From Psammoneis japonica (Eukaryota), in NCBI GenBank assembly GCA_008632985.1, contig QPGO01000075.1:312517-370572 (forward strand): a DNA stretch of 58,056 nt, given 5' to 3'. A program made the position numbers and the translations under genes. The notes beneath the pieces are model-generated. The model saw only the letters and a program-made list of their open reading frames with translations, had not been told where the DNA came from and made no database searches. Position 1 is the first letter of the stretch. Every line of letters begins with the position of its first letter. Positions 32,121 through 58,056 of the stretch are shown here, one piece after another.

Positions 32121-32286
32121 GCCACCCGGAGTCAATTTGTCCCCGGCATGGAAGAGAACGAAAGATCAAAGAGTGGGATACAACTATTGAAACGCGTCTC
32201 GATCGGCCTTGACAAGTTCACTTTGTTTTAGGCTTAATTAGCACACTCACTTTCACACTACTTGGACTGATGCTTCGTCGCAATAT

Positions 32287-33672: not shown

Positions 33673-34060
33673 GTTGTTCTCGTATCTCAGTACTTGTTTT
33701 TCTTTTCTCTTTTTTGTTATACATAACAACGACGAGGCGGTTCGTTCAGATGTTACTTCTGGCCGCCGTCCTGCTTTCGTTTCGCTCGTCGTCCTCTATC
33801 GCGAGCAGTTGAGCGAGCTACTGTAATCTTTTTCGTCCGTCCGTCCGTCGCATCGACGCACGATTCGACGCAGTCAACGCGACGTCGTTCTCGAGACGTT
33901 TGACGTTGCGTGTTGCGTTGGCCCGTTGCTACTTCTACTACTTGCACAGTACAGAGCGATCGGCGTTTCAAAACTTGAACGAACAGAAAGGAAACAACAC
34001 AACGAGGGGTTATCACACGCTTGTATAAAGCTTCGACGCATTCCTTATCCTTGCTGCAGA

Positions 34061-36191: not shown

Positions 36192-37010
36192 CTTGGTGTA
36201 GGTCTACCTTGGTATCTTGGGGTTTAGATTTTTTTTTTGTGACACGTCGGCGAATACAGTAATGATTTTAATTTTGGGGTGAAGCTGTGAATGATTTGTG
36301 AGGCGATCAGCGTGGAGTGAGGCGGGGGCAATAGCCGCAAAGATTTCGCGCGATAATTGTTTTTCGGGTCTTGGCCAATAAATGATTTACTTAAAAAGGA
36401 TTTCATGGAGAAAATCCATCTACTTATTAATAAATTATATCATTTATATAGAGAAAAATGACAATGGCCCTACAAACACTTCTTCGTCCATGTCATAGAG
36501 GTACAGTACAGTACTGTATTTGTTCATAATACAGTATATATATATATCCAGCATGAACCTGGTATTCCATCGTATGTATGATTCGTACCATGTTTCCACT
36601 CAATAAATATTTCTGGGACTTAACATCCTTGATGACATTTCCGAACATCAGACAAATTTGCACGACGCGCGCCGCCGCCCGGCCGGCCGCCCGCCGCCCG
36701 CCCGAAACTTGTTTTATTTCGTCTGTCCCTCGACCCGCGTATTTGCCGGGTGACGTGTTTCTGGTGAGGGTCGGAGGGAGAAAAACGAAATTCTATTCCC
36801 ACAACAAAACACAATACTCTTTCACATCCTTCGTGGAATCTATCCATCTCCTTCGCAAGAACATGCCGCGAACTCTTTGGAAGAAAATCGAGTGGCTTTG
36901 CGGGTCGAGGGTCGAGTCGTCGTCGAGTCGAGTCGAGGTAGTTCTTATTGTTGCTGCTGTTGTTGAGCATTGCTCTCGATCAAACGGCACACAAGAAGAG
37001 AAACACAACC

Positions 37011-38351
37011 ATGTTTGGAGGCATTCCGTTTGAACACTTTGCTCATAGTGGCGGCGCCGGTCGTTCGTTTCACGGTGGTCCTTCGTCTGAAGATGTCGAC
37101 ACGACCAAGTTGTATGAAACACTCGAAGTGCCCAAAAACGCTTCGGCCAAGGACATTAAAAAAGCTTATCGCAAGCTTTCTAGAACGCACCATCCCGATA
37201 AGGGCGGTGACGAGCACAAGTTTAAAGAAATCAACGCTGCTTATGAAATTCTGAGTGACGAAGACAAGCGCAAGGCCTACGACAAGTACGGACTCGACGG
37301 TGTTTCGGAAGATGGAGGTCCTGCGTCTGCGGGCGGTGAAGACTTGTTTAGCATGTTTTTCGGAGGAGGCTCTCGCCGAAGTGCTGGTCCGCGAAAGGGC
37401 CCGAGTGTCAATCACCCGCTCAAGGTGTCTCTGGAAGACTTGTACAATGGCAAGACGGTCAAGTTGGCAGTCAATCGCAAAGTCATTGTCGGCGATGTCA
37501 AGACGTGCAACTCCTGTGACGGACAAGGTATGGTGATGGAGGTACGTCAGTTGGGACCGGGTATGATTACGCAGATGCAACGTCCCTGTGGAGACTGCGG
37601 TGGAGAAGGAAATAAGGCGAAGACAAAGTCGGAGCGCAAGGTGCTCGAGGTGCATATCGATAAGGGTATGACGCACGGGCAGAAAATTACCTTTAGGGAA
37701 ATGGCTGATGAACACCCGAACATGGAAACGGGAGATATCAATTTTGTCATTCAAGAAAAGGATCACGAGCTGTTCAAGCGAAAGGGAGCCGATCTGTTGG
37801 TCACCAAGGATATTTCGCTGAATCAAGCCTTGACTGGTTTTGCGGTATGTACTGTTTTTCTCATTTTTGGAATACTCGTGTAGCGTTGTTATGGTCTTGC
37901 GTTCGCTCATACTCTATTATTATCAATTTTTTGCAGTGGAAGGTCAAGCACTTGGATGGCAGGGACATTCTCATCAAGACCAAACCGGGAGAAGTCATTC
38001 GTACAGAAATGAAGGATCCCATCACGGGAAAGATTATCCCTTTATAAAAATGGTCAAGGACGAGGGTATGCCCAGCCACGGCAATCCCTTTGTCAAGGAA
38101 ACTTGTACATTAACTTTCATGTTAAATTCCCGGAAGACGGAGCACTGTCGCCAGAAGTGGTGGAGACTCTCAAAAAAGCCTTGCCTGATCCGGATCCAGA
38201 GGTGGAGCATGATCCCATGGAGGTCGAAGAGGTTTTTATGGATGTGGCGGATTTGAGACACTTTGGAAAGGGAGGAGCTGCCATGACTGGCTCAGAGTAT
38301 GATTCCGATGAAGAGGGTGGTCCACAAGCGGTGCAATGTCAGCAATCATAG
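37011..38351 (+). CDS. DNAJA: Type I Hsp40/DnaJ (DNAJA family) co-chaperone; intron 37845-37936; two apparent 1-nt frameshifts in exon 2
   Basis: J domain with HPD, G/F region, CNSCDGQG and CGDCGGEG zinc-finger repeats, C-terminal CaaX box CQQS; GTATGT...TTGCAG intron; frame slips near 38040 and 38098 in homopolymer runs. Confidence 0.93.
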
Positions 38352-38469
38352 ATTTTCTAGTGAAGTGCACTGCGGGTTTTGGTTGTTTTGAGTGTAACGC
38401 GGTTTTCAGTTATTAGTGTGTTGTCGCTACGACTATTATCTATTTATTATGCTCATTCTAGCTCTAGTG

Positions 38470-41400
38470 TTAAAAAGCGGATCCCTTGAGTTCGACTCGT
38501 GTAAAGGCGTCGCCGCCGTCAGCGGAGTCGGCGCCCTCGAAGCTCTTGACCATGGATCGTTCTTGTTTCAGCCACGCACGAATCTTGGTCTTGAGCACAC
38601 CACTTGTGCCGTGGCCATGCAAAATATAACCACATTGCGTCCCGACACAGGCTCTGGCTAAACTTCTCCATACACTTTTGTTTTGCTTCTTCCATGTAGC
38701 TACCTCGAACATCAATCGTGTTTGAGGCGGTGCGGATACTAATAGATGATGACTTTTTCGTGGATCCTTGCTGCTGCTCTCGTGTCAGTGAGTTGGTACC
38801 CTGCTGTTGTCGTTCTGCTTGGATGGCCTTTCGAGCAGCCTTTGACAAGTTCTTTGGTCCGGTTTGTTGCGTCGAAGCAGAGGATTTCATGGGGGCAACG
38901 CCGTCAATTGGCATTGCAACTTCTGTGTTTTTCATCGAATGACAACTCCCGCACTTTGACTTGGAACTGGTTTCCAACTTGCATAATGGTCCCCTTCTTT
39001 CCCATCATGGGACCCTTCTTACACACCATGATTGCGTCGCCCACCTTGAGAACAGGCTTTTCACGCATTTCCGCCAAGGGAACAAGATCAGACAAGGTCT
39101 TTTCCCGCACCGCCGCATTTTTTACCTTCTGTGCTACAACACTCGGTACATTTTCAGCGTCGTTCAGCGCGTCTCGCTTGACAAACTTGACATCCTCCCA
39201 ACTCTTGGCAACGACACGACGGGATGGATTGGACTTGAGCTTGTCCAAAATGTCTTCGAGCAAGCTTTCCTTTTCTTCTAGCTTTTTAGCGAATTTCTTG
39301 GCTTCCTCTCGCCGTGCACTCAATTGTTTGGATTCCAGTTTTGCTTGTTGGGCACGCATCTCTTCTTGCAGTTTTTCCATTTCCTTCTTTTTCGCAGCCA
39401 TTTCTTCTACTTGCTTATCCACCAAGGCCTTTTGATCTTCCAGCTCTCGAATCAAATCACCCATTTGACGCGTTTCTTGATCCAACAAGGCATTGGCACG
39501 GTCAATAACAGTTCGAGGGAGGTTGAGTCTTTCGGCAACGGCAAGAGCAAATGATTCTCCTACTGTTCCCGGCAGTAATTTATAGGTGGGCCGGCCGTTG
39601 ACAAACTGCATTCCACCAACGGCAAAGCGATCATCGGATGCTGCCAACTGCTTGAGTTCCATGTAATGGGTTGTAATTGCGACACGCGCACCTGTCTCCA
39701 CGAGAGCTTCCAACAAGGCTTGTGCAATGGCTACACCCTGAGAAGGATCTGTGCCACTACCTAGCTCATCCATAAGGACAAGAGCATTCTGACCGGCGTT
39801 TGCCAATACCTCGCGACACACCAACATGTGTCCTGAAAAGGTGGACAAGTCACCGCCGACACTCTGCAAATCACCAATATCAGCAAGAACAGGATTGAAA
39901 AAGTCAACTCGTGGCTTGTAGTCCTCGTCGACATGGATACCGCCCGCTGGTGCAGCTGTAACAGGAATACCGGTTCGAGCCATGAGAGCCACCAAACCCA
40001 ACAGTTTCAGAATAACAGTCTTACCACCCGAGTTGGGTCCGGTGAGCACTAGACCTTGATTTCCGTTTGCGCCAACATCAATGTCGCTCCCGACGACATT
40101 GTCCAATCCCGAAGAAGCAATACGGGGTGCTTGGCATTGGCAAGCGATACAATGCCTTCATTGCCAACGGTTGGAATGACTCCATTGAGCTTTCTTCCCA
40201 CAACACCCGGGCCACGACAAGGTCGAGTTGTCCGGCTGCGGCCACGGCTTGTTCTAGATCCTGACGATTGGCGAGAATCTGTTCCGACAAGAGTCGCCAT
40301 ACCCGTGCTTCTTCTGCACGTAATTCACCCTCGGCTTGTCTTAGCTCATTGGTGGTTCCTACAATTTCGGTTGGCTCCACATAGACGGTTTTACCTGACC
40401 GTGACGCGTCATGAACAATCCCGACGGATGCCTTGTTGTTTGCCTTTTCGTCAATTGGAATGACAATCCTTCCATTAATTTCAGAGTACGTGGCACCACC
40501 GCTTTCCGTCGCTATCTTCGACTTGATGGATGGCGTTGTCAATAATGTATCAAGCGTATCAAGAATATCGCCCTTGAGTGTTCGAACCTTGGCACGCAAT
40601 TGTCCAATGGTGGGAAAGGTGGTCCCACTCAGCCTACCATTCTTATCGAATGCGTTATGAAGTAAATCCTGAAGCGTAGCATTGACCGTAATACAGTCTC
40701 CCAGCTTTGGCAGCTCTTCAAACATTCGCTTCTTTTCACCATTAGTCTCGTCGCTTTCCACTTTGCTCAGACCTTTCGACCACAATGTGATATCCTCCAG
40801 AACGTCCATCATTGTGGAAACCTCGAGAATCTCTGGGCCTTCCAGCACTTGTCCATTATCTACCATATCCATTATTGATTTTAGATTAAATGTCATGCCC
40901 TGAAACGGAGGTGGACCCAAACTCTCCTTGTACCCTCGTCGATTTCTCCAATACGCGTCTCGGAGCACCGACATGTTGTCGACGTCGTGGCTGTCGGGAT
41001 CCGGCAAGAGAGCTTGCATTTCCTTTACAGCGTCGTATCGGCTTTGGATTCCTTCCACAGAATCAGCAGTCAATGGCATGTATGCGTTTGATGACAAGGC
41101 CTTTTTGCTCTTTTTTGCCTTGCTTTGTCCCTGCGTCGGAGGTAGCGCCATGGCACGACCGGGTACGGTGGAGCATTCTTCCTCAAGCGCAGACAGTACA
41201 ATTGGAAAATCCAAAGTATCGAGCGTGCGTTGAAACAAATCAAGCGCTTCATCCTTGGGTCCGTCACTGTGTGCTTTTGATTTCGATTGAGTTAACTTTT
41301 TCTTGGGCATGTTGTTGTTCCTGTTGAATTTTCTTGCATTCAACCATGATTCGTCCAACAAGCGATCCTCGTTTTCATCTTTTAACTTTGTGGGTGCATC

Positions 41401-41556
41401 AAAGGTTGGGTCTTTTGTTGGATCCCACTTTACCGGTTGTCTCAGTACCGAATACCCACTTGTTCCCGCACGTTCTCCGTCTTGCTGTTGCGTACCCATC
41501 ACGGCACACGTGAACGACGGTCTCTTGATGACGAAGCATACCGACCGACAAAGCAT
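38470..41556 (-). CDS. mutS2: MutS2-family ATPase with C-terminal Smr domain (split by apparent frameshifts near 40190, 38930 and 38640)
   Basis: SRSGKTVYVEP, AKHPVL, Walker A TGPNSGGKT, LSTFSGH, MDELGSGTDP, TTHY, coiled coil, then IDVRG and LHGHGTSGVLK (Smr). Confidence 0.9.
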
Positions 41557-42070
41557 CGTCCTTCTCTCAAGAAAAGCGCCAGCAACAAGATTCTCGTACC
41601 GCCATTTTCTGTTGTCTATGTTTTATGTTTCAACGAGCGATAGGATACCGTATTCTGAGTCATGGTTGCGCCAATCAGTTGTCTGTTGTTGTTCGTTGTT
41701 CATCCTCTCAAAGAAAAAAAGGTCGGAGGTGGAGGGAAGTTCTGACCGCTGACCCCGCTGACCGCGCGTCTCCACGTCAGCTGTTTTTCCGTACGTCGTA
41801 CAGGCGAAATAATTATTGTATATAGCTTCGTATACATCATTTAAATTCAAATTCTCAGTGACGATTACGCGCACGCACGCGACAAACGGCCACTTTCTGT
41901 CGCGCCATCCGCGGACGAGCAAACACAAGCTGAACTCAAGGATAAGCATTTCTGCTTGCCGTTGTTCTTGTTGTTGTGTTTGATCACTTTGTTGACTGCT
42001 ACTAGACCTTAGTTGTCTTTCTTTTGCTATCAAACGTCTCTTGACTGTACCGTCCAACTTTTATACAATC

Positions 42071-42864
42071 ATGGGTGGCAAACGCAAAGGTACAAGTGTG
42101 TCTGCACCTGCCGTCACGACGAGTGTGGTGTCACACGGCACCACTACTCAAGACTCTTGGGAAGCAACCATGTACAAGCTCAAAGAGATGAATAGTAACG
42201 AAAACCTTTTTGGATATGTAAATATCGGTCTCCAAAAGAGCAGCGAGTGCATGGCAGCGCTGCAAGCCTCTCAGAGCGAGGTTGAGAAAAAGGCTGAATT
42301 GATCAAGAACAATCTCACCCATCAGATTGAACAAGCTCGCGAAGCCTGTCGTGCAGAGTCGAACGACTTGTACCAAATCAAGGAGAATCTATCTCGACTG
42401 GAATATGAAAAGAATTCTCTCAAGGATGCATTGGCACAAGTGGAAGTCAACAAGCACGCGTCGGTTCAACGAATTCACAAATACCAGCAGGAAGCCAAGC
42501 AACAAGTCGAATCGATGATCAGGTAGAGGCGGAACGCATCAAGCAAGTTCCTCGTCTCAAGAGTCAAATTTCACTGTACGCCAAGGTGACGGGTATCAAG
42601 TGGGACTATGATCGGCAAGACGTTATTGCGGGAGAAGTGGTATGTAGATTGTTGGCAGGTAGTCTTGCGCCTGTTGACTATGAAGTAGATACCCTGCAAC
42701 TCACTTGCTCATTCGTTGTTTTCTGTTTTCACTGTCTTCCAAAAGGCTGTTCCCGGGAAGGCTAGTATGCGTCGCTTCTCGATTGATCCCAAAAGCATTC
42801 AGAGTTTGAAATCGTAAACATGTTGTGGAGTCTCAAGGATGGTACTTTTCCGATGGAGGGTTGA
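42071..42864 (+). CDS. SPC24: Kinetochore NDC80-complex subunit Spc24-like; one intron (about 42640-42745); apparent frameshifts
   Basis: N-terminal coiled coil followed by SLYAKVTGIKWDY and FEIVNMLW, typical of the Spc24 C-terminal domain; divergent from mutS2. Confidence 0.65.
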
Positions 42865-43481
42865 TTTACACCAAACATACCGCACGGTACTTTTCAACTC
42901 TGTCGTTCTCCATCGAAATAGCGCTGCAATAAAGATTATAGGGATATCTTTGTTGTTGTCAAGAGTAACGTCGAGTACCATTGTTTGTTCTCGTTGTTTC
43001 TGCCCGTAACACAAACGTGAAGATGGGTTCTGCATTATGGCGATTTTCTTTTCAGCATCAGATCGGCGCTCTCTTGACTCGTTCGGAAATGGTTGTATTG
43101 ATGCATAAGAAGCTAGCTCCTTCCTTTGTAAGGTTACAGTAACATTTCATCCAGAGTAATGAGTATAAGCACCTCGGTATTGTTATTCGTGCCCGATGTG
43201 CATAAAGGCGAAACAAACACAGAGCGCGACAACGGATGCGAAGCTCCACCCCGAGTAAGCATTGGGAGGTGGGTCGTCTGTGGTATGTTATAGGTACAAG
43301 ACGCATGCATGCGACAAAAGAATTCCAGGTAAGATGCATTCTAATAGAGTTTGGTCTAAAGTGAATTTGTGGAAACGCGACCGAGCTTTAAGTCTCTGTA
43401 CAAAGAGCCTTTTGTTGGCATACGCAGCTTCCTCCTCAAAAGTGCCGCAGAAGCGACATTCTAATAGCCTTCTTGTACAGT

Positions 43482-44263
43482 TTATTCCACGTAATGCGCA
43501 GAGGATGTTTGAGATTGACTCTCCCACTCCATTTCTAGCTCATTCGTGCGTTCTGTTTCAGCGGTCTCCAGCTGCTCTTTGCTAAAGCCTGAAACCGCAA
43601 TCAACCGTTCCTTGCGTTCATCAGGACTGAGTCGTTTTGGTGGTTCTGGCAAATACTGATAGTGGCACAGTTGCTCAAGCGATTCTTCGTCTTGTGAAAG
43701 ACTGCTCTCCCGTTTCTTTTGTTCCATAAAGGTATCAACGTCCACCACAGTCAGCTTGGATTATGCTTCCAATCCAACGACAGCGGCACGCCTTCTTCAC
43801 AAAAGGGGTGATCGCCAATTGTCAGCGCGTATTCTCGAATCTCCACATTGGTAAATTTGATTTTTCGCTTCTTGGAGCGACGACAAGTCGACGAGGAATC
43901 GTGAAGACTTGCCCACGATTGATTGATCGAGTGCAAATGAAGCCACGATTCGTTGCAATCATCGTGGTTTTCGTTTTCCAGCAGAAAGTCATCAAACAAG
44001 TCGCTTTCAAAGGACGAATCCGAAACGTCCAAAAAGTGCGAAAACTCATCGTAGCTGCTGCTGCTGCTATCGTCATCGTCGTCACTGTCGTACCAACTAA
44101 AACTGCATTGTTTGGATTGGTCCTTGATGGGAGAAGTAGTAGGAAGTTGTTGTTGTTGTTCTAGCGCCATGGGATTTTGAAGTGGGTTCTTTTCTTCGTC
44201 CTGATTGCTACAACAAGAAGTGATTGATTGATTTCGATGGTGATTGGGAACAAGAGACTCCAT
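43482..44263 (-). CDS. Hypothetical diatom-type protein (IREYxxTIGDHP...PLSLDW motif); apparent frameshift near 43750
   Basis: Acidic/Ser-rich N-terminus, KIKFTNVEIREYALTIGDHPFCEEGVPLSLDWKH, continuing as PPKRLSPDERKERL in ORF 43482-43748. Confidence 0.7.
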
Positions 44264-44620
44264 TATTGATGGTTTTCGTTTCGTGTTTTGTGTCTTTGCA
44301 GCTTGCAGTTTCGATGTGTTGGGTGTGCGTTTGTGCTGAGCGGGCTTCGGATCGCAAAATTGTGAGGTGCACGTTTCGTGACGTTGTCGCTTGTCGCGCG
44401 CCATCCGTCAAAAAGTTCAATGACGCGCTGGTATCTGGTATGTTCTCTACTTACGTACTGTGTACGTGCCACGTATGTATGCGTGCGTGTTGAAGATAGT
44501 GATCGACACAGTGTCGTGGCAGATTTTTAGCTCGAATGCTACTTATCAAAATAGCTCGTGATTTCTCTCGAAAAAAATTTCGCAGTGCCCTCTCTTGCAG
44601 CAGCTGCTCTCTAGAGAGTA

Positions 44621-47600
44621 GACTGGTGAGTGCAATGGAGGGTGTCTGTCCGCTGAGTCTTGTTCATTGTTCACCTCAAGCTCCACATGCATCAAAGGTC
44701 ACACATCTCATCAGAGCACCCGTTGCAGTGGTCAACACCGCCTTCTTTTCCCGCGGTGATTTTTTTTTCCTTTTGCAGGTTAAAACAATGTGCACTGTCA
44801 AACCTCATTGTGTTGACTGTGATTGAGGATGAACAATTTTGTGCCATGGGGTCTGAGGATCTCCCTGCTCCCTGTGAGAAAACATGTTTCACTGTGAAAC
44901 AACCACCCGTTTTTCCCATGAGAGTGCTGCCCACCCCCTCCATCCCCGCGGGTTGTTGTTTGCATTTCATTCAAATGACACTGATGGAGACAACACTGTG
45001 CAAGTTTGCAGCAGCAGCTGCAGCTCTTTTTCTTGAAGTGCCACTGCCAGCAGCCACCTTGTTCATTGCCAAAAAGTGCAGAACATGTTGTGAGAGTGCA
45101 GCCAGTGTGGATGAGCCAACACAGCCAAGAACAGGAACAGCAACACAGACTTGCCGGTGCATCCAGTGCCGCTGATTCTGGAGCAGGTGAGTTTGCAGCA
45201 GGAGCTGCTGTTCCATGATTTGAGCTGCTGCTGCTCTGACCCACCTTGTTCATTGCCAAAAGGGCAAAATGCCAACTGAGTTTGCCGCGCACCTCCCCAT
45301 GCTGTGGATGGTTTGTTGATGGCATGTTTGGAGCAAGGACCAGAAACAGCAGAGAGACTTGGGAAGCCTTTAAAAATGAGCTTGACAACTCAGGCAACCT
45401 CCAATGGGTTGCCCCCCCACTCTCTGCCTCTGCAGTCTTTCTGGATCTGGANGCAGTCTTTCTGGATCTGGACAAAAATTGGAGAAGACAGGTGCAACAT
45501 TGGCAAATGTGTCAAAAACCAATGAACCTCTTTTTGCACATGCCTTGTTTGAAGAGTGTGTCACATGTGGTGAGCACTGTTTCATGTGTGCAATTCTGAG
45601 AGCCATGGGAACAAGCACCACCTGCAGTCTTTCTGGATCTGGATGCAAAAATTGGAGAAAACAGATGTGTTGTTGGTGAATGCATCAAAAACCAATGAAC
45701 CTCTTTTTGCACATGCCTTGTTTGAAGAGTGCCATTTGTGGCAACTTGCAACAATTCTGGATGCAGAACTCTGAAACATGCAATTGTGCCAATGCTGCAG
45801 AAAAGTTTGTGTGACATGCATGTGCACAACAACATGCTGGCTCAGCATTCTGGATGGCAATTCTTTGATGCAGCAGATTTGTGACAGCACACTCACAATC
45901 ACTAAACTCAAGCAATGCTCCAATCAAAACCCATCTTGACCAACCAGAAGGACAGCAGGTCTCGCCACACATTGAGCTGCTGTCATCGGCCTGTGGGTTG
46001 GAGTTTTTCACCACCATGGCAGGTCATTGATTTGCAGCTTTGTGACCACATGTAGAATCCATGTGAATCATGACATTGCATGCTCTTGCTTTTCAGTTTT
46101 TGGTGAGAGGGTGTGCACTGTTGTGAAGTGTGCAGAAAATTGCACATGCAAAAAAATGCTCAAAATGCTGTGGACCAACAGGCAGTGCAAATCTGGGAAT
46201 CACAAAGAGAAATTTAAAATGAGGGTGGGTCACGTGCATGTGTGAAGCAGACTGCACATGTGCAAAGATGTGTGCACATGTGAGTGGGAAGGGCCAAAGT
46301 TAAAACCAAGTTCAAGTTGATGATTGTCAAAAGGAAACCAAATCATGCATCACAAAAAATGGATGTCAATCCCAATTAAAACAAAATTGCATGCATTTGA
46401 TTGAAGCTTGTGTGCAAGAAAAGCTGGTGAGACATCAGATGAAACACACAAAACAGCTGCATTTTGTTGAGCACTGTTGCTGGCATTTTTCAAATTTGGC
46501 TTGTTGGCAATTTCAACAGTGCACATCAAAAAATTTACAAAGGAAAGTGGAGACCACTGTGTTGCAGCCTCTGATGCTCAAAAGTTTGTGGATGGTCAAC
46601 TGCGGCAGTTTTTGGAGAACAAATGGTGTGCAGCCACCACACACACCCTCATGTCAATGATGTGCTCAAGCTCTGTTGCTTTTTCTTTTTCTTGCTGACC
46701 ACATTCAAAAAATGCAAAGAAGTGCCACAGAAACCCAAAACACAGGACAAAAAAGGCCAAGAAGAGCCGCATGACAAGGTGTGCAGATGTCTGGGAAAAA
46801 AAGGTGCATTCTCAGCAGCATTCCTGCTCTCTTGTGAGCCAGCCAGAAGCCAACATCACTGGGGATTTTTGATGCATGTTCTGAGTTGTGGAACATTGTT
46901 GCCAGCCAAATGCTCCAGACAAGCCATGTGGTGAGTGTGGAGCTTCAGCTGCTCAAAAGACATTGACAAAGCTTGCTTGTGAGACATTGATGAAGCTGGA
47001 TGCTGCTGCCGCTGCTCTGGTGCTGCTCATTGTTTGAAGTGACTGCTTGTGCAGCCCTTGTTTGTTGCAAAAAGAGCTCACAATGGAAGCTGCTGCTGTT
47101 CATCACCATCATTTGGAACATTTGCTTGTGCACAGCCCTTGTTTGCAACAAAAAATGTCAAAGCCACCACCATTGCTGCTGCTGCTCATCATCATTGGGA
47201 GCACCTGCTTCATGTGACACTTGCTTGCCTGCAACAAGATGTTGGCTGCTGCTGCTGCCTCCACTCATCATTTGGAGCAACTGCCTCTGCTCTTCTGAGC
47301 TGGTGCTGCAGCTTGATGTTAGAAGACACACAGCTCCTGCTCTGGCAGTGCTTGTGCAGAGACTGAAGCAAGCTCCAATGAGCAAACACAGAGCCCCCAA
47401 ACCAATGGCATCTGGCACCAACTTTTTACAGTCAATTGGCAAAAATGTTCTCTCTTGGCAGCACTTTCATCTCTCTTTGTTGTTTTCTCCTCTGCACCAA
47501 GAGCACCAAGGTCCTTTGCAACATTTTTCTCATCACATGTGTGCGCTGTTGTCAGCAGCTTGCAAGAGACCTCAATTTGAAAATGGGGTTGGTTCATTTT

Positions 47601-49526
47601 CCTTGTCATTGGAACTTTCTCAAGGGGAGTCAACAGGTCCAGACAATGACGTTTGTTGCTTTTCCCTGCACTGCAAAGCTGACCAATCTCTCTCAGGTGG
47701 AAAGCATGCACAAAATTGTCCACAGACAAATGGCAGTCTGTGCTGGATCCAGCAAGAAAGTTTCCAAAACATTGTCGGCAAAGTGAAGCTTTCACTTGCA
47801 TGGACTTGGCAGTGTTTTGAGTTGGAGCAATCTTTTTGCATGAGACAAAACAAGAGAGCAGACAGAACAGGTCCATGTCATTGTTCAATGTGAGTGTGGG
47901 TTTAGAGTGCCAACAGAGGTTGCAGTGTGGACAATGACAAAGTGCAGATTGCATGAAATGCATTTTCTGACAGAATGAGCCAAAATGCCAAAGATGCTGA
48001 TCTAAGAACAAGAGATGGCTTGTGATGTGCAACTCCAGAAAAATTCAGCAAAGACACATGCCAGTGCTCTTTTTCAGGTCGTTTGCTCGATGATTGCCCT
48101 CCAATTGTGGCATCCTCAACAACAAACGGCGGTGACAAGACAAAGATGTGGACCTGCGCAGAGACCTCATTCACACCTTGTTGGTGCAAAACCTTTGAAG
48201 CACCAGGGAGTGCATCCATTGTCAATGGGGTCAACATTGACGAAGCTCTGTGCAGATCCATTTGGATGAATCCCAACTCTCGAAAGCGGAACTTGCCATT
48301 GATCGGCTGCAGACACATTCCAGACATGGTGGGAATCTGTGTGACATTGGGCCCATGGAATTCCATGTGCAAGCTCAGCAGTAAAACCATCAGGCAATTA
48401 ATGCGCCAATGATCGCCAACAGAAAATGAGGCAATTTTGCGAACGCACAAACTCGTCCATGATTGAAGTGCATCATTTTTTGCTCAGCCAGGTGCACTCT
48501 TCAGACATTGAAGAATGCACCTGGAGCATTTGTGTTCCTGTGATTTTGTCAAACAAAACATCTGGGGTTTCGCAAAACAGCAAGTCTGGAACAATTTTTT
48601 GGAAGATCACACGCAGAAATGTGCACGCGAAATGTGCGACGGATGAAAAAAACAATTGTGTCACACGTCAGCACTGCGAGCTCCCACCTGCCAGGGCTGG
48701 GACGCATCTGCAGTTGCACGAAAGTTGTTGCGTTTTGAGCTGTGCCAGCCAAAGAGGGGAACTGTGCAATCTGGCTGCGGCTGGGTGGGATCACAAACAA
48801 AGCCTTCAAGGCGACACAGGGTGCAGCCGTTCTGCTGTGTGGGGCCGCCGTCAATGTGCTCTCCTGAGTCACTGTCCTGGACAATGTCGTCAACTTCTGT
48901 GTGCCTCTCAGGCTGTGTTGTGATGAAATTGTTAGAAAGCTGGTCATGTCACCAAGCAAACATCGGAGCGGTGCTGCGTGGTTGCTCCTCATGTGGACTG
49001 AAGATGTGGCCATTGAAGACAAACTCACGGCATCCATTTTTCGACGTTCTTGCGGTTGCTTCCAAAGACAAAACATGACTTTCAGGAACGGAATTCCAAC
49101 ATGGATCTGATGATGCAAAATGGTCCTGCAAGTTCCCGTTGCACCATGTGTGCATTGGAGTTGGGCCATTGGCATCGGGACAGACATCACTCGCAAGACA
49201 AAATTTGTGCAGTTTGTGACTTTCTGCCAAAAAAGTTTTGCCGTGCTTGCAACACAGCAACCAAGGGCAACTTTGGACAATCAAGGTGAGTGCAATGGAG
49301 GGGCTCCACCCACCAACTCTCATTTGTTTTGCACTCCTTGTGCACCAGAGGTCTGACATGCATGTCAAAAGTTTTTGGACAGTGAGCTGTGTTTTGGACA
49401 AGAATGAACGGCTCTTGCTCACCTGCTGAGTGTCCAGTGCAGCTCAACTCCACTGCACTTGATGGGCTCCAGTCCCAGGTGGTGACATTGGGCCCACAGA
49501 ATTTTGCGTGCGAGCTCCGCAGCAAA
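44621..49526. mobile_element. TpA-depleted block of degenerate repeat DNA, block 3 (host of the copia insertion; continues at 57349-58056)
   Basis: TA nearly absent; internal duplications at about 45431-45560/45623-45731 and 47040-47280; 48428-48708 is homologous to 57396-57675. Confidence 0.75.
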
Positions 49527-49802
49527 TGACAGAAATTGAAGGCAAATGGCAAGAATTCAAACAATGACTCCTCACTGCTGTCTAAATGGCAGATGAGTCT
49601 CCGCTCAGAGACTGTCACAGGAGCCGAAAGACGTGCAAGTCGGTGCAATCGGGCTACTGTCATTATTCTTGTGAGCCTTGTGGCTCGAAAGCAAACTACA
49701 TCGCGCGTGAACGCGCGGAACTAAAGCACACAAAACTGTGCACGGTAAACTAAACAGCGCGCGATGCTTCGCGCGCACCCAAATCCTGTTCAAATCCTGT
49801 CA
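49527..49802 (-). repeat. 3' LTR of the copia element
   Basis: 262/276 identical to 56357-56632 by manual alignment, no indels; preceded on the minus strand by the PPT. Confidence 0.95.
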
Positions 49803-52800
49803 CTCCCCAGTTTGCTTGAGGAGCCACAGAAACAGATTCGACTTCAGATGGAATGAAGTTCCAGAACATGAGGGGGCGGAGAAGGTCCCAGATTTGGGAG
49901 CAACCCCAATGCTTGCTGAGAATGTCAGCAGGGTTGCGGGAGCCTTCGATGAAGTGGAACTCAAGGTAACCAGAGGCAATTGCCTCACGCACACGATGGA
50001 ACGATAGTGCGGTGTGTCGTTTGTGTAACTTGGAGTGCGGGATGGTGGCACTGTCTACAACTGACTTGTTGTCACCGAACATGTAACTAACGTTACGGAT
50101 CGGGACGCCAAGGTGGCGCAGGGTGATGCGCAGGTCGACAATCTGCTCAACACAAGTCCTTGCGGCAACAAATTCAGACCCGCAGGTCGCAGTCTCCACG
50201 GTGGCTTGTTTCTTAGAGAACCAATCAGCCGGGAATTTGTTGAGGAAGTGGAGCATTCCCATGACAGAGCGTCCGGTGAGCATGCAATGGTGCAAGTTTG
50301 CATCGACGTAGTGGGTGGCAGTGACGAACTCGCCAAGGGGCGGTGGAGCGTCCTTCGGGATCATCTCTTCTGCTTCACCATGCACGGAATGCATCCATTC
50401 ATAGGCCGGAGCAGGGAGATCTGAACAGTCGGGCTCTTCCGTGCGAACGCGGAGAGCACCGTGTCGCATCTTGGAGAGGTGCCCACAGACGCGTTTGGCA
50501 CGATCCAAGTGGCCTTGACGGGGCGCAGCTCGGAAGCTAGAGAGTGACATGACGGCCGTGGTAATGTCAATTCGACCAAGGGACACTGCCCATTGGAGTG
50601 AACCAACAAGAGACTGGAACTTGTGAATGCCATCGGGTCCCAGCAGTTCGGAAGTGTCCAGTTCGGGGTGGTCACCCTTCTCTAGAGGTGACAGGGCGTT
50701 GGTGGGGTTTCTCCCCAAACAGTCGGGCACAGCTGTCGACCATGCGCTCGATGTACTTGCGCGGAGACAGGCACAAGGTTCCGTCGGGTTCCCGGGAAAA
50801 GTCGCAACCCAGATGGAACTCAATGGGTCCCGCCCTTGAGCTTGAACTTGTGCTTTTCCGTGAGAGTGTCGACGAAAGATTGAGGGTCCTTCATGGCAAT
50901 GGCGAGGTCATCCACATAAACGGCAATGTGTTCACAGTGGTCGCCGTTCCTGCGCATCCAAATGTCGGGTTCGGCGCGGCAGGGGAAGAAGCCTTCAGCT
51001 CGCAGGCAGTCGGCGAAGCGCTCGTGCCAGCGGAGACCGGAGCTGCGCAGTCCATGCAGTGCCTTGTGGATGACAAGGATGTGTCCTTCGAGTTTGCCGA
51101 ACTCGGGTCCAGCTACAATGTAAAGCTTCTCCTTGGTGGTGGCTTCAAGGTGGGCATTGCCAATGTCGGTGGCCCATGTCTCCAACTCGTTGAGTTCGGC
51201 CAGGAAAATCATCAGCCGAAGGCCACGGAGGGAGACTACTCCGGAGCAGACACTGTCGACAGGTACGTCCGTGAGGTGCCCGTCGGCTACGAGTCGTGCC
51301 TTGTGGCGACCGTCGTGTTTCACGTCGTGCACCAGGTGCACTCGGATCTTCTTGTGTCCCGCAGGAGGAGTGGAAGACTTGAAGGGCCCGCAGTCATGGA
51401 AGACTTCGTATTCGTCGAGTTGGTCCATCTCGAGATTAGTTGCGTCTCCCCACTTGCGGTTGCCGTTGCGTTTGTCTGGTGACATGGCGTGTTTGCAGTT
51501 CCGGGGAACTTCGCATCCACACTTGTAGCGAGGTGCAGTGCGGAAGGAGCGAAGCTTGGCTTGGTTGGCCATGCGAAACAGCTTCTTTTGGCGCCTCGCA
51601 ATGGTGCGGAACCGCTTCCAGCCATCCGTGTCGAGGAGTCCGTTCTCTCGTGCATGGATGGCACAGGTGATGGGGTCGTCCTTGGCGATGATGGCAAGAG
51701 GCTCGGACGTGATCTCCCCACTTTCCCATTCAAGCATGATGTTGTAGCTGGAGCCTTTCCAGGTTGGGTCGTGAGGCTTCAGAGGTCCTTCGTGTGACAC
51801 GATGCGTCGAAATTTCCAAACAGTGGTGTCTTCGTCTTCTTGCTCAATGTGATTCATGATGTCATTGCAGGCAAGGACTTCCTCGTATTCGTCATTGTTG
51901 ACAGAGCAGACGAACCCAGTGAGCTCGGGATTGCCGTTCACTTTCCATTCGTGGTCTTCGACGGCCTTGACGATGCGAGCTCTGTGGCGTTGTCCGTCCT
52001 CTTGTGGCTGCATGAGGAAGGTGCGTCCAATGATGTCTTGCGGATCGAAAACTGGCATCTTGGGTGTCCTGATCTCCCCATCAGGAGAGTCGACGGGGTT
52101 GTCGTCATGGCGAGATTTGATGATGGGTTCAGGTGGCTCCCCATCAGGAGGATCAAGACGCAGGTTTCAAATGGCAGGATCAGGGGTGGCGGAGCGGATG
52201 TTGGACCGGTGGAGGATTTTCTGAGTCTCATCGGACAGAATCTTGAAGGTCATCTGGTGGCCAACGTGCTCAGCAATGCCAACGAAGCGTCCACGCAACT
52301 CACGGGATTCGGATGGCCAATCGGAGTCATCGAGGTGGAAGCACACGGGTTCCCACCAGTGAAAGCGAAGCAATGGGCTGATGTCCGGGGTGGAGCCAGT
52401 GAGAGTCTCGAGGGGCGTGCGCCAGTGGAGACGTGGGGACGCTGTGTGGTTGAGCATGAAGCACACGCACATGAGCGCCAGCAGCCATGTGTGGGCGGGC
52501 GAACCAAAGCGATCCATGACAGTGTTCGCCATGCGCTTCACGGTCTGGTGTTGATGCTCGGCAAAGTTTTGGTGTTGCTGGTGAGGCTCACTTTGCCAGC
52601 TAGAGATGAAGAGGGCGCGCAGGATCCCGAGCACTTTGTGGCTGATCTCAACTTGAGCACGGTCGCCAATGAGTTTGGACGGGGCACCACGTTCACGGAT
52701 CTGATCCTCGAGTGTGTTGACAAACTCTTTGTCCGTCTTAGTGCCGTAGACGTCAGTGACGGTAGACTCGGTGCCAACAAACAGTTGGGTGCTGGTGCAA

Positions 52801-55415
52801 CCAGAGTCGACGGCCGGGGTGTCGGCATGAACGGTGTCAGTGGCGACAGGCTCGTTGCGGCGGTGCACATTAAGGGCGGGGTTGGGTGATTTGTGGGCCT
52901 TGCGAAGGTGTGTACCGGCGGGCATGCGGGCGTACTGCGTGGTGCAGTCAAAAGTACGACGGACCGTGTCGGCAGGTAGGAAGCCAAAGCAAGGCCGAAG
53001 AGACTCGAAGGGGGGGTCCTTGGGCTGTACAGTGCGCTCCGGAGGTGGAACGTCATCGCCCTGGGGGCCAATCGCATGCAGATGACACTCGTAGAACACG
53101 TCGTCGTTCGGAATGAGGTGATCATCGAGGGCGGACGCGTGATCGGCAGACAAGGAAGCGGACATGATGGTCTCGTTGACAACGACACGATGACGGTGGT
53201 TGCCGCATTCGTCAAATAGGTTGGCAGTGGGATCGTCCTGCAGGTCAGAGATCGCGTCGCACCACTGGTCGTCGTCAGTGACAGAGTGATCGAGGACGGA
53301 AGGGTCCCATGTGTCATCACCGGTGAGGATGACATGGGGCAGGGTGTCCCATTCGGCGTCAGTGTGAGGTCGCATGGCAACACAAGGCAGGCCAGCCTTG
53401 ATGTCAATGGGGATGACATGGCCATCAGGAGTGGCAATGCGTTGCAAGCCGTTGGGCACCTTGACAGAGCGATCGTTGACATCCTGTTTGCACCATTCGA
53501 GCTGGCCGCAGGAATGGATGGTCTTGCCCTTGCCCGTGTGTGCGCACTGATGGAGGATGGCGATGACGGGACCATGCTGGGTCTCAACAACGGCACCAGC
53601 GGTGACAATGGGGATGTCCACCAATTGATGATCGTCAATGCCCTGAACGTCGACTTGGCGAGAGGTGCATGCAATGACGCGAACGTCGTCGCCAGCAATG
53701 CCGCCGTTGGCCCCACGATCGACTAGAGCGCCAGTGCGTGTGGAGCGATGAGCAGAGGCAGAGCAAATGACATTGTGGTTGTCAACGCAGCGGCAAGTGC
53801 GGCCGTCAAGTTCCATGTCATCTGCAGAGGCTGGCGGGGTAGAGGAAGCGGCGGATGGCCCCGGTCGACTGGCATTGGGGGCTTGGTTAGGAGACAACAG
53901 ACGTTGCAGATCACCGGGTGGCAGTGGCTTGCGCTTGGTGAGGTGCGCCAGGATGGGATTGTCCGAAGTGGCGTCCACATGTGGAGCGGAGTCACCAGAG
54001 TCAGCAGGAGTCGTGTTGGACAAGTTGACATCACCGTCACTCCCAAGGTGTTGGTCGTGAAGGTTGGCCGTAACAGACTCATGGCAGTCACTGGCTCGCG
54101 GGTTGCGGGGAGGTGGACGAGAATGCTCAAGGATGATCGCCTTGGAGGAATCGGGCAACGAATCCCAGAGCCGTTGGTGGTCGGGAGGGAGACGTCTCCA
54201 TTGGACACCGGTGAGGCTGGGACCGCGGGTGCAGGCAGCATTGGCTTGAAGGACATCAACGTCGCTGTCAATGTCGTAGAACACATCGTCGGACGGTTCC
54301 TCGGAGCAGACGTCGTGTGCGTGTGTGGCGCGTCGGGGAGCTCGAGGTGTCGTCTTGGGTTGAAACGTGCTGTCGCACTGAGCTGCCGCGGAGAGGAGCA
54401 AACCACAGTGTTGGTCGCATGTGAGGCTCTTGCCACTCTGCGTGCGATGCTGATCAGCTTGGTTCTTGACAGCACGGAGTTCCTCGACAGGGTGCACGGC
54501 ATTCTCGAGCATGACGCGCTTCTGTCCTTCAGAGAAGTGGTCACTGGCCGGGATGAGTGCCTCGCACTTGCGCAGCTGATCTTGCCAATGAAGGATGAAC
54601 CCGTGGGTCGGACCTTTCCAAGTGCCATCACCAAGACGTGCGGTGGTGAGGTGCGTGAGCAGGGTGGAGGACTCGACAGATGCGCGGGTGGAGGCAAGCG
54701 CGTGCTCAGACAAGGAGCGGCAGACAGTCTGTGCGTCAGAAGACCCCACATTTTCGCGAATGAGAGCCTTGCCCTTGTCGGTGAGAAGGATGCGTTCGAA
54801 GACGGCGAACATGTGCTTTTGCTGTTCAGCAAAGAGCAGTTTGTCTTCGGGGCTGGTCGGTTTGTACGACGAGTCTAGAGTGCACTCGACGTCTTGGGCA
54901 TGGGCTTGTGCCACAAGTGAGGTGTGCCAAGTGTGCCACTGCTTGTCGGATTTGAGAGCCGTGAAAGCGGTGGGATCACGCTTGATGCCTCGCTTGAAGT
55001 CCCGCACCGGGTCACGTGCCTTGGTCGGGTTGGTGACATGTGGAGGTGCAAGGGGTGAGCTGCCGATGGACACAGAAGACATGCAGTCGGGGCTGAGGCG
55101 GCAGGCAAGGAACTCGTCATGCGTGAACAAAGAGGAGTCGTTGGCAACGTCAAGACCTTTGTGTGCTTTGACAATGTACAGACTGACCAGTGCTGCTAAC
55201 ATGTTCTTATAACCACGGGGCAAAGGGGTTGCATTAGTGCCGTTGTCGCACTCAAGCGAGTCGATTTGGGACGGGATGAACGTGAACAGTTCCTGATGCG
55301 AGTCCATGCCATCTTGGGCCAAAGCCAAACGAAGAGGACTCCCAGCACCTTGGGCAAGCACGGTTCCAACCACATGCTCGAAACCATCGGTTTGTTGCTG
55401 ACGAGTGAGAACCAT
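49750..55415 (-). pseudogene. Copia gag-pol polyprotein, inactivated (in-frame TGA at 52167-52169, frameshifts near 50830 and 50700, many Tyr->Cys/His)
   Basis: Protease LVDRGANGG; integrase VATDTV, IGDRAQVE, SEPHQQHQNFAE; RT HKARLVA, DIGNAHL, ALHGLRSSG, YVDDL; RNase H YVDANL, GSEF, GDNKSV, NPADILSK. Confidence 0.93.
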
Positions 55416-56341
55416 GGCAGACAAAAGTGGTGTCAGGACAATCAATTCTGGTTGGGAAGCGAAGGTGGACTCGAAACTTGGGTGAGAATGGACTTGACTT
55501 GAAGTGGACTTGACTTGAAATCTTGAACTGTCTTAAAATCAGAAGTCGCCGGGCTTTGTTGTCCCGTTCGTTGTCAAGTGCTAAACTTCCTGTCCGGTCC
55601 GTAGAGTTGTGCCGGCACGTCCGAACCCGCAGCTGGCGGCGCTTTGGGTTGCTTGCGAGCGGAGTGGCGGGTTGCAAACCCCTGCAGGCAAGCTGACCAG
55701 AGGTGGACAAGACCCCCGAACCGTTCTCATTTTATGTCGGTTGGATTTCCCGATCAGGCTGGCCAGTTGACGCAGGCGTCAGGCGCTGTGGACGAACGAA
55801 CAAACGCGGGAAAGCACCCTCGCCCCAACGCAGGCTGCAATCACGACCACCTGCTCTCACAGTCGTCCTCGTGGACCTGGCAGAACTGTGGAGCACCAGC
55901 AGTCCGGGGTGGATCAGGTGCAATGGACTCGGTGTGCTTGTAGAGTGGCAGCAAAACCGCAGTCCGAAGAGTGGACAAAGGTTCTTGGCCGTGAAGACAT
56001 GCACACATGTGTGTGTGTCTTCAGCGACTGAGATCCTTGAATGTGCGGGGTTCTTGACCGTCAACCGAGGAACAGGCACACAAAGGGATGTTGATCAAGG
56101 ATGGACTTGGACGTGACCGTTGAATGTGAGTCTTCAGCGACCAAAGGCAGCACAATCAATCCAGACATCCAGCGGCAAGGAGACTTGATGGTGACGTTAA
56201 CTTCCTGCCGATGCCCTGGCATTGAATGCGCGCAGACTTGCCGACACATGTAGAACACATACGGAGGTCCACGCAGAATTGAAATGGCATCGTTGGCAAA
56301 TCAACGACGACGATGGCGGTTGCTCAATGGGTTGACAATGA

Positions 56342-56356
56342 GCAAGACTGTCAATC
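56342..56356 (-). promoter_or_regulatory. Putative half-tRNA-type primer binding site of the copia
   Basis: No TGG after the 5' LTR; the plus strand reads GCAAGACTGTCAATC, an anticodon-loop pattern GA-CT-NNN-AA-TC, which would be GACTGTTAATC (Asn, GUU) before a TA->CA change. Confidence 0.45.
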
Positions 56357-56632
56357 TGACAGAAATTGAAGGCAAATGGCAAGAATTCAAACAACAACTC
56401 CTTGCTGCTGTCTAAACAGCAGATGAGTCTCCGCTCAGAGACCGTTGCAGGAGCCGAAAGACGTGTAAGTCGGTATAATCGGGCTGCTGTCATTATTCTT
56501 GTGAGCCTTGTGGCTCGAAAGCAAACTACATCGCGCGTGAACGCGCGGAACTAAAGCACACAAAACTGTGCACGGTAAACTAAACAGCGCGCGATGCTTC
56601 GCGCGCACCTAAATCCTGTTCAAATCCTGTCA
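56357..56632 (-). repeat. 5' LTR of the copia element
   Basis: Direct repeat of 49527-49802 with TG...CA termini. Confidence 0.95.
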
Positions 56633-56692
56633 TGACAGGATTTAAACAAGATTGACCAACTCGATTAAATCCGACCCATCAACCTGAAAAAT

Positions 56693-56756
56693 TGCGATAC
56701 CCAGGAATCGAACCTAGGTCCTCTTATAACCGGTTACCGTCTAAACCATTTACCGC
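56693..56756 (-). ncRNA. tRNA-like Pol III unit in the 3' LTR of TRIM B (64 nt, no canonical anticodon arm)
   Basis: GCGGTAAATGGTTTAGACGGTAACCGGTTATAAGAGGACCTAGGTTCGATTCCTGGGTATCGCA: acceptor-like GCGGTA/TATCGC plus A, A box, T arm CTAGG-TTCGATT-CCTGG, then ATTTTT terminator. Confidence 0.7.
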
Positions 56757-56857
56757 TTTCTTCAAACTGACAGGCTTTTTGTACATAGTCACACATGTTT
56801 CAGCCAGAGAGTGACATACACCTTTAATTCTTCTTAGAATTCTGTCACTCCCCATAT

Positions 56858-56893
56858 GTCACGAAGCTGTCTGACGTCACGAAGCTGTCTGAC
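56858..56893. repeat. Perfect 18-bp tandem duplication GTCACGAAGCTGTCTGAC x2 in the TRIM B interior
   Basis: Read directly from the sequence. Confidence 0.9.
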
Positions 56894-57193
56894 GTTCCTT
56901 TCTTTGGACAATGATACTTCTCACAGCTCCCCTTCTACCTGGGCCACATTTTTCTGCACATGTCATGACCTCCCCGGCGAACTGATAATTGGGCGGCCAT
57001 TCCGGCCTCGGCATCCCTAATAAGAGCACTATGTGCATCGTCGGTCTGTCTCACCGCAGCCTCTCCTCAGTTTTAGAGTCATCTTGAAGGAGCACACACA
57101 CCTAGGTTCAAATCATCAACGGTCCTCGCACCATGACAGGATTTAAACAAGATTGACCAACTCGATTAAATCCGACCCATCAACCTGAAAAAT

Positions 57194-57257
57194 TGCGATA
57201 CCCAGGAATCGAACCTAGGTCCTCTTATAACCGGTTACCGACTAAACCATTTACCGC
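57194..57257 (-). ncRNA. tRNA-like Pol III unit in the 5' LTR of TRIM B
   Basis: Same as 56693-56756 except the A box reads TGGTTTAGTCGG; followed by TTTTT. Confidence 0.7.
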
Positions 57258-57757
57258 TTTCTTCAAACTGACAGGCTTTTTGTACATAGTCACACATGTT
57301 TCAGCCAGAGAGTGACACACACCTTTAATTCTTCTTAGAATTCTGTCAGTAAAATTGTTCAGCAATGGACACATGAATGATCACCAACAGAAAAAGAGGC
57401 AATTTTGCGAACGTGTCTCCTCCTCCACACTTGAAGCACATTCTTTGCAGCATGCCCGGGTGTGTTCTTCAGACATCAAAGAATGTGCCCAGCGCATTTT
57501 TGTTGTCACAAATGCAGACAACAGAAAGCCTTCAGCTTCGCAAAACAGGCAGTGTGGAACAAATTTGTGCAACAGAACATGCAGAAATGTGCGCGCAAAA
57601 CATGCAACGGATGACAAAAAACAATTGTGTCACAGTTCAGCAGTGCGAGGTCCCACCCAGAGCTGGAATGCATCACTTGTCAAATGTGGTGTTTCTCTTC
57701 CTCTTGGCTGGAGGACAGCTCCAGCTCTCCAGAGGTGGTTGGTGTGTGTGATGTGGT

Positions 57758-57758
<1 letters not shown>

Positions 57759-57792
<34 letters not shown>
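57759..57792. repeat. (CA)17 microsatellite
   Basis: Read directly from the sequence. Confidence 0.95.
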
Positions 57793-57794
<2 letters not shown>

Positions 57795-58056
57795 AGAATG
57801 CGAGCGCGAGAGTTGGTTTTTCGGACGGTTGCCACGATTGATTTTTGGTTTCTGCGCAGCATCCAGCACTGTTTCCACTGGACTCAACTGCACACATCGA
57901 GTTTTTTTGGTTGAGGCTGTTTTGCACTGCACCCTTTGGAGTTCGGAGAAAGGGAAGACACCAGGCAATGTCCCCAGCGAGTGAAGTTCAGGTTTGCTTG
58001 AGCCGCTGGCATGGTCGCATTTAACGGCTTCAGTGCTCATGGTGTGCGACTCGCTT

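Follow-up and report, generated by a model that had tools for sequence, protein, structure and literature searches.

The window analysed here comprises 58,056 nucleotides (nt) of the Psammoneis japonica contig QPGO01000075.1 (assembly GCA_008632985.1, positions 312,517 to 370,572 of the forward strand). Positions 49527-56632 are occupied by a dead Ty1/copia long terminal repeat (LTR) retrotransposon of a diatom, located on the minus strand, in whose conserved protein motifs tyrosine has been replaced systematically by cysteine and histidine. We put the probability at roughly 0.8 that these replacements are the in-frame footprint of a process which acted specifically at TpA dinucleotides and converted A:T to G:C pairs in integrated DNA. 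In this process, an adenine preceded by thymine would be changed to guanine. Since TpA reads alike on both strands, either strand can be hit: a change on the coding strand would turn a TAY codon into TGY (Cys), and one on the opposite strand would turn it into CAY (His). A preliminary description of the region had proposed these two outcomes from the coding part only; the complete element extends from LTR to LTR.

All ten protein motifs quoted in that description were recovered by exact match. ALHGL, IGNAHLEA, DSVCSG and HCEHIAVYVDD are located in the open reading frame (ORF) of the reverse transcriptase (RT; 52058..50820), RVCGHL, EPDCSD, TATCGSEF, LRHLGVP and HWGCSQ in the ORF 50823..49750, and QCAHTGKG in an ORF of 1092 amino acids (aa; 55445..52167). 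The 1092-aa ORF contains 29 Cys, 60 His and exactly 7 Tyr, the number estimated before; 6 and 4 Tyr were counted in the two other ORFs. Homologues have tyrosine at the quoted RT motifs. Among the best 120 of 2361 homologues, the Tyr of ALYGL was present in 117/120, that of NAYL in 120/120 and that of DSVYSG in 120/120. The 18 columns of the RT ORF with a Tyr majority read 5 C, 7 H, 5 Y and 1 W in this copy.

The full coding sequence was compared with intact relatives. A scan of metagenome contigs yielded 80 loci, 25 of them with a single intact ORF of at least 1800 aa; L051 was dropped because it shared a contig with L028. The remaining 24 relatives, with single ORFs of 1828-2180 aa, were aligned with this copy, which was read through with X at stops. 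Of 574 columns conserved to at least 80%, 26 were Tyr columns and 548 were not. The Tyr columns held 4 Y, 8 C, 11 H, 1 W and 2 F in this copy, which bears out the systematic replacement described earlier. Changes thus affected 22/26 conserved Tyr columns (19 to C or H) versus 30/548 of the others (Fisher's test: 1e-21 for any change, 4e-30 for a change to C or H). With the threshold lowered to 50%, 55 Tyr columns comprised 19 C, 15 H, 13 Y, 5 F, 2 W and 1 L. Intact relatives do not carry these residues: C or H occupied 4/623 cells, with at most one per relative, versus 19/26 here. Seven of the 30 changes in non-Tyr columns resemble CpG deamination (two R>Q, two V>I and one each of R>H, A>T and T>M); CpG decay has begun in the copia element but is minor.

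The loss of tyrosine is accompanied by a general depletion of TpA. In the internal region of the element (49803-56356; GC content 0.570) 57 TA were counted, versus 303 ± 14 (minimum 259) in 500 mononucleotide shuffles, corresponding to an observed/expected ratio (o/e) of 0.19. With a CG o/e of 0.89, CpG is still abundant, as had been noted, and CpG decay is therefore not the cause of the TA loss. All codon phases are affected. This copy has 9, 7 and 9 TA per 1000 codons at codon positions 1-2, 2-3 and the junction 3/1 (18, 14 and 17 in 1897 codons); for the 24 relatives the medians are 37, 42 and 71, with minima of 32, 17 and 36. A mutational cause demands that the other phases lose TA along with the Tyr codons, and this is what the counts show. 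The expected products are in excess at positions 1-2, where TG reached 43 per 1000 codons versus a maximum of 29 in the relatives, and CA 91 versus 84. Over six frames, TAA and TAG together amounted to 9.4 per kb versus 44.6 in the relatives, with TGA retained (38 versus 43), which leaves many long ORFs on both strands. Inactivation had been ascribed to the stripping of Tyr and the removal of stops alike. The former is supported, but the disappearance of stops is a side effect and does not inactivate the proteins. This copy is further damaged by an in-frame stop codon (TGA) and by two shifts of the reading frame.

CpG decay and TA erasure are separable across hosts, given that five relatives (L002, L004, L016, L062 and L072) are strongly CpG-depleted (o/e 0.05-0.24) with ordinary TA. 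As a side observation, the locus L076 (2759 nt) has C or H at 7/15 conserved Tyr columns and a TA o/e of 0.31, and similar C/H footprints were seen at Tyr columns of the proteins P0014 (9/18) and P0120 (5/17). All three belong to other, environmental copia families. The 77 other metagenomic relatives of 78 showed at most 2 C or H at conserved Tyr columns.

Direction, strand and timing of the changes can be read from the LTR pair. The two LTRs differ at 14 bases in 276 nt. Thirteen of these bases lie at TA-derived sites, one is a CpG/TpG difference, and there are no others. At four sites (8 bases) one LTR has TG where its partner has CA, and at five further bases TA is opposed to TG or CA. Hits were thus found at 13 of 30 detectable TA site-copies, versus one change elsewhere. 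The TG-versus-CA sites indicate an ancestral TA that was hit independently on opposite strands; together with the outgroups they fix the direction as TA to TG or CA, as the preliminary description had maintained. LTRs are identical at integration, hence at least part of the mutation occurred after integration, in DNA and on both strands. The flanking DNA was hit too, since the single mismatch in the target duplication (GCAAA versus GTAAA) is again TA/CA. The C:H ratio of 19:15 shows the two strands to be about equally affected, in line with the two strand outcomes. No strand-coordinated runs were detected along the element (21 runs versus 17.8 ± 2.8 expected; runs test, z +1.1). Both observations speak against an editor that moves processively along one strand, and also against RNA editing as the main cause.

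TAT and TAC codons did not differ in the loss of Tyr (p 0.70). The idea that TA flanked by A or T was lost first, derived from the context of surviving TA in comparison with the relatives, was rejected: the ancestor had a higher GC content than the relatives, and at Tyr columns TAT and TAC showed no difference. Kept Tyr codons had on average more CpG within 5 nt than mutated ones (1.23 versus 0.56, p 0.01); this was one of 8 tests, fades at wider radii and is a lead only.

The features of the element and its surroundings are as follows.

49527..49802, minus strand: 3' LTR of the copia element, 276 nt, TGACAG...CTGTCA, direct repeat with 56357-56632; TA o/e 0.42; 8 inferred TA hits
56357..56632, minus strand: 5' LTR of the copia element, 276 nt; TA o/e 0.58; 5 inferred TA hits
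52167..55445, minus strand: gag-protease-integrase ORF, 1092 aa, 7 Tyr left
52167..52169, minus strand: in-frame TGA separating the integrase part from the RT part; column variable in the relatives (K, Q, P, R, L and others)
50820..52058, minus strand: reverse transcriptase ORF, 412 aa; Pfam RVT_2 (PF07727), E 2.4e-22
49750..50823, minus strand: ORF with the RNase H end of pol; homology in frame starts near 50691 and runs to the TAG at 49752-49750
between 50832 and 50833, minus strand: first frameshift, 2 nt missing, frame change in tblastn; inferred ancestral TpA in GGT/ACG (Gly-Thr)
between 50705 and 50706, minus strand: second frameshift, 2 nt missing, frame change in tblastn
49664..49751, no strand: CGCGCG-rich spared stretch, part of the 3' LTR, all 5 TA kept
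56633..57348, minus strand: small TRIM-like LTR element with two LTRs of 215 nt each, tRNA-type primer site TGGTGCGAGG and a GGGGAG tract; adjoins the copia 5' LTR
49522..49526, no strand: target duplication, low-side copy GCAAA, 5 bp; encloses the copia and TRIM-like elements
57349..57353, no strand: target duplication, high-side copy GTAAA; one mismatch to GCAAA, TA/CA
44751..49526, no strand: older erased flank, TA o/e 0.04, CG o/e 0.25
57349..58056, no strand: opposite older erased flank, TA o/e 0.04, CG o/e 0.56

Read down from 55445, the element consists of the 1092-aa ORF, the in-frame TGA, the 412-aa RT ORF, two frame changes and the RNase H end, which closes with the TAG at 49752-49750. 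Its assignment to the copia type rests on the RVT_2 match of the RT ORF (80.2 bits versus a cut-off of 31.6) and on the 2361 homologues, of which the best 120 all contained PF07727 (120/120). In tblastn searches with intact relatives, the RNase H end was found in the third frame with 63-77% identity. Pfam reported no integrase in this copy nor in the intact relatives L001 and L002, and single-sequence searches against PDB likewise gave no integrase match. A profile built from the last 313 residues of the 1092-aa ORF, upstream of the RT, together with 13 relatives did match the integrase cores of retroviruses (E 5.8e-4 for 5cz1; also 5cz2, 3jca and 7usf), a modest support for an integrase that precedes the RT, as in Ty1/copia. 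A GGGGAG tract adjoins the copia 3' LTR. No tRNA-type primer site was recognised in the copia element, and blastn and tblastn revealed no further copies of it within the window. In the leader, at 55995-56020, there is a short CA/TG run (CACACATGTGTGTGTG) in which other copies differ by 2-nt steps. These steps look like ordinary slippage, and the run may have descended from a TA-rich one.

The erasure did not reach all parts of the insertion. In the CGCGCG-rich stretch of the LTRs (49664-49751 and 56494-56581) 0/10 TA site-copies were hit, versus 12/18 in the adjoining stretch (Fisher 0.0009). This stretch carries four CGCGCG-type clusters and most of the 19-20 CpG of the LTR. It faces inwards in one LTR and outwards in the other, so that the sparing follows sequence and not position. 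The neighbouring TRIM-like element (716 nt, with LTRs of 215 nt and an internal part of 286 nt) was likewise little affected. Between its LTRs 2 bases differ, one of them as TA/CA. TA o/e stands at 0.67 in this element, and 1/28 of its LTR TA site-copies were hit versus 13/30 in the copia LTRs (Fisher 0.0005). It carries a primer site (TGGTGCGAGG) that complements the 3' end of a tRNA, and its LTRs end in the same TGACAG...CTGTCA as those of the copia element, against whose 5' LTR it lies head-to-tail. The 5-bp duplication GCAAA/GTAAA was found solely around the pair, and neither element has a duplication of its own, which suggests co-integration of a joined cDNA.

Within the window, the erasure is confined to mobile and repeat DNA; the host genes are ordinary, and the copia element and the old blocks are depleted. 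TA o/e falls from 0.58 in the genic stretch to 0.19 in the copia element and 0.04 in the old flanks. The genic stretch (30001-44500, 14.5 kb, CG o/e 1.06) encodes a CHRD-domain ORF (35649-36203, minus strand), a DnaJ family A gene (36942-37880, plus strand) and a MutS2-like gene with domains III and V (38907-41622, minus strand), each with ordinary TA and CG. The five organism-named hits (5/5) among the best 120 matches of the DnaJ gene are all diatoms (Fistulifera, Epithemia, Mediolabrus, Conticribra and Attheya), with 71-74% identity. The CoDi groups of diatom copia elements (Maumus et al. 2009, PMC2806351) are delimited by clustering of the RT domain with the references CoDi1-7; for the element described here it is the diatom host that is established. 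Sharp borders separate the genic DNA from erased blocks at 3001-15500, 20001-29500, 45001-49500 and 57500-58056, where TA o/e is 0.00-0.15, CG o/e 0.02-0.44 and the TG and CA ratios are near 1.8-2.1. Their 40 ORFs of at least 140 aa gave no credible Pfam family. A 300-nt stretch of the flank 57349..58056 is 74.5% like 48408-48708, with too many transversions to be informative.

Contigs of four runs from one sample of one study, probably the source of the assembly and the only sample listed with the element (no RNA data set was among the listed ones), were used to compare this copy with its family. The family is multi-copy in the sample (14116 contigs matched), and 297/324 places variable against this copy in run X1 were transitions. 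Paired TG/CA sites occur among the 40 of 341 variable places listed. At 50832/50833 other copies read two extra bases, CA or TG. The relatives encode K-G-T-G-P-I at this point, L052 has GGT ACG, and the frame agrees with an ancestral T/A. At 50705/50706 other copies read an extra CA, and two relatives have CCT/AGC at the junction. Both frameshifts are therefore exact 2-nt losses at TA-derived dinucleotides, neither of them in a microsatellite. They fit lesions on both adenines of a TpA followed by excision, although two cases prove nothing. The extra CA made up 16436/28722 and 17991/41308 of the summed contig depth in run X1, a quantity that is no copy count.

Synonymous TpA sites were depleted as well. 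At 116 conserved L, I or V columns this copy has 8 NTA, 37 NTG and 3 NCA; the relatives have a median of 23.5 NTA (minimum 8), 20 NTG (maximum 35) and 0 NCA in the same columns. At the codon junctions of 90 conserved N, K, T, I or M columns, T/A occurs 4 times, C/A 60 times and T/G 0 times, versus medians in the relatives of 21 (minimum 9), 33.5 (maximum 51) and 0. Outside the Tyr codons, the missing TA thus went almost solely to synonymous products. This suggests that synonymous TA was purged earlier, in a lineage still under selection, and that the remaining TA stands in less mutable contexts. Part of the TA loss outside the Tyr phase probably predates the death of the copy or reflects codon bias. 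Tyr could not be recoded in the same way, because TAT and TAC both contain TpA.

Several points weigh against the interpretation as a TpA-specific process acting in place. At the Tyr rate of 0.72, 15.7 missense changes would be expected at conserved non-Tyr TA sites, and 3 were seen (Poisson 1e-4); a single neutral decay in place does not fit this shortfall. The low synonymous TA could also stem from a plain bias of the ancestor towards GC-ending codons. About half of the summed depth of the family shares the two 2-nt losses of this copy, and the internal Tyr loss (34/47, 0.72) exceeds the LTR rate (13/30, 0.43). Taken together, the shared losses and the higher Tyr rate indicate that some of the damage may already have been present in a defective source copy. 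Finally, a deaminase as the agent is something that we purely infer.

The alternative that survives best develops this last but one point. Most internal Tyr losses would have been inherited from a hypermutated, defective source copy, which was copied in trans by the proteins of intact members, and only the LTR differences would be local. The 2-nt losses are absent from just about half of the summed depth, which implies that the damaged lineage has several copies, and the excess of internal over LTR hits points the same way. Against it, the listed variable places include some at which TG or CA is private to this copy and TA is found in the others, in addition to the TG-versus-CA pairs. We regard this explanation as possible, though unlikely to account for most of the losses.

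Pol eta introduces A>G at WA motifs, with TA as a hotspot. Error-prone patch repair by a Pol eta-like polymerase at methylated repeats, in the style of the A:T phase of antibody mutation, could thus produce similar changes without a deaminase, and the CpG decay of the old blocks is a possible source of mismatches to start such repair. But no AA>AG signal was present: conserved Asn was kept in 16/16 columns and Lys in 22/23, and no LTR difference lies at AA. Moreover, TA loss is far ahead of CpG loss, with 13 TA versus 1 CpG events between the LTRs. This makes the polymerase a very improbable cause.

Adenosine-to-inosine editing of the genomic RNA by an ADAR- or ADAT-like enzyme with a 5' U preference, fixed by reverse transcription, is more improbable still. 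Retrotransposons do pass through RNA, and A>G following T is the classic context of such editing, also discussed in the accessible text of a preprint on Bigelowiella natans (Mettrop et al., 10.64898/2026.01.13.699255). Yet 13 TA-derived bases distinguish LTRs that were identical at integration, and the target duplication and non-coding flanks were hit too. The sense T>C changes (15 His versus 19 Cys) would in addition need editing of antisense RNA, which is not reverse-transcribed. An untargeted origin in GC-biased gene conversion, compositional drift or codon-usage selection can practically be dismissed: the element is indeed GC-richer than its surroundings (0.57 versus about 0.48) and its synonymous phases could reflect codon bias, but the changes are limited to TpA, conserved residues show hardly any other weak-to-strong changes, 13/14 LTR differences fall at TA sites, and selection would not remove catalytic Tyr conserved in 120/120 homologues.

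Returning to the TpA-specific process on integrated DNA, its agent would be an enzyme, most simply a DNA adenine deaminase, whose product hypoxanthine would pair with C. Such an agent would single out certain mobile or repeat DNA and pass over host genes, with a selectivity finer than the element, to judge from the escape of the CpG-dense LTR stretch and the TRIM-like neighbour. The family may have been under TpA pressure already while active, when its synonymous TA was purged under selection; the unrecodable Tyr codons (TAT, TAC) would then have been lost once selection lapsed. A more specific scenario is doubtful as a whole. In it, diatoms would possess an enzymatic editor of TpA adenines in DNA as a defence against mobile DNA, the copia element would have purged its synonymous TpA and left Tyr, the sole amino acid with an in-frame TpA in every codon, as the target, and the editor would read local features, thereby sparing the CpG-dense LTR segment and the TRIM-like element. 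Double hits on the palindrome would lead to excision of the dinucleotide and so to the 2-nt frameshifts.

Known hypermutation systems resemble the copia footprint in part. Repeat-induced point mutation (RIP), known from Neurospora and other fungi, changes C to T, mostly at CpA, which creates TpA and stops and lowers GC. In common with RIP, dinucleotide-specific transitions on both strands have crippled transposon genes in place and left repeat blocks with skewed dinucleotides; unlike in RIP, TpA is destroyed, TAA and TAG stops vanish and GC is up to 0.57, so that the direction is not that of RIP. In fungi, RIP is in addition triggered by sequence duplication, depends on a sexual phase and involves a RID-type methyltransferase; the copia family, for its part, is multi-copy. 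APOBEC3 enzymes deaminate C on minus-strand cDNA before integration and leave strand-asymmetric G>A. They share with the copia case a deaminase-type, context-specific hypermutation that ruins retroelement frames, but the changes described here concern A:T pairs, are strand-symmetric (19 C to 15 H) and arose after integration, and do not qualify as APOBEC products. ADAR hyper-editing acts on RNA, where it produces one-strand clusters of A>G with a 5' U/T preference. The chemistry and this preference are alike, whereas the copia changes are present in DNA, in the LTR pair and the flank, and lack strand-coordinated runs.

The closest match is Bigelowiella natans. According to the accessible text of the preprint (Mettrop et al., 10.64898/2026.01.13.699255), integrated giant-virus and virophage DNA of this chlorarachniophyte undergoes TpA>TpG/CpA changes only, on both strands and towards higher GC, with host genes spared, at a rate of about 6e-7 per site per generation measured in mutation-accumulation lines. 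Further marks of the Bigelowiella type are that the process is ongoing and episodic and that the rate is elevated roughly 1000-fold; for the copia element the LTR pair gives 13 TA events in 30 site-copies versus 1 event elsewhere. The same text reports mild depletion in the viral regions (Rho TpA 0.45) and an enrichment of reverse transcriptase and DDE domains among low-TpA coding sequences, and proposes adenine deamination with an ADAT2-like candidate (10.64898/2026.01.13.699255). As far as that text goes, both cases share an A:T>G:C change limited to TpA on both strands (in the copia element 13/14 LTR differences and 19/22 Tyr changes to C or H), with foreign or mobile DNA hit and host genes spared. 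The copia case differs in its purely comparative evidence, its diatom host, its LTR retrotransposon target and a TA o/e of 0.19 (0.04 in the old flanks), and its old blocks have lost CpG too. A literature search for TpA hypermutation, with subscription journals and bioRxiv supplements outside its reach, found the Bigelowiella preprint only and no report from diatoms. In their accessible text, two papers on diatom transposons (PMC2806351; 10.1101/2025.10.24.684338) make no mention of hypermutation, TpA, dinucleotide, repeat-induced or deamination. The copia element bears the same signature as Bigelowiella, a very recently described kind, and its occurrence in a diatom retrotransposon appears to be new.

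The footprint has practical consequences. Long open frames on all strands mislead gene finders, and the dating of repeats is distorted, with LTR divergence inflated about 14-fold here. Counts of Tyr-to-Cys/His changes against relatives, combined with TG-versus-CA sites in LTR pairs, provide a simple, direction-resolved assay for any genome. A natural TpA-specific editor of adenine in double-stranded DNA would be of interest for base editing. For the retrotransposons, TpA is an effective target, as Tyr cannot be recoded and catalytic Tyr of RT and integrase is lost even after the probable purge of synonymous TpA. A TpA-erasing mutator acts as a mirror image of RIP in fungi and would be a second kind of eukaryotic mutagenic genome defence, seen in two distant algal lineages, the chlorarachniophyte of the preprint and the diatom that hosts this copia element.

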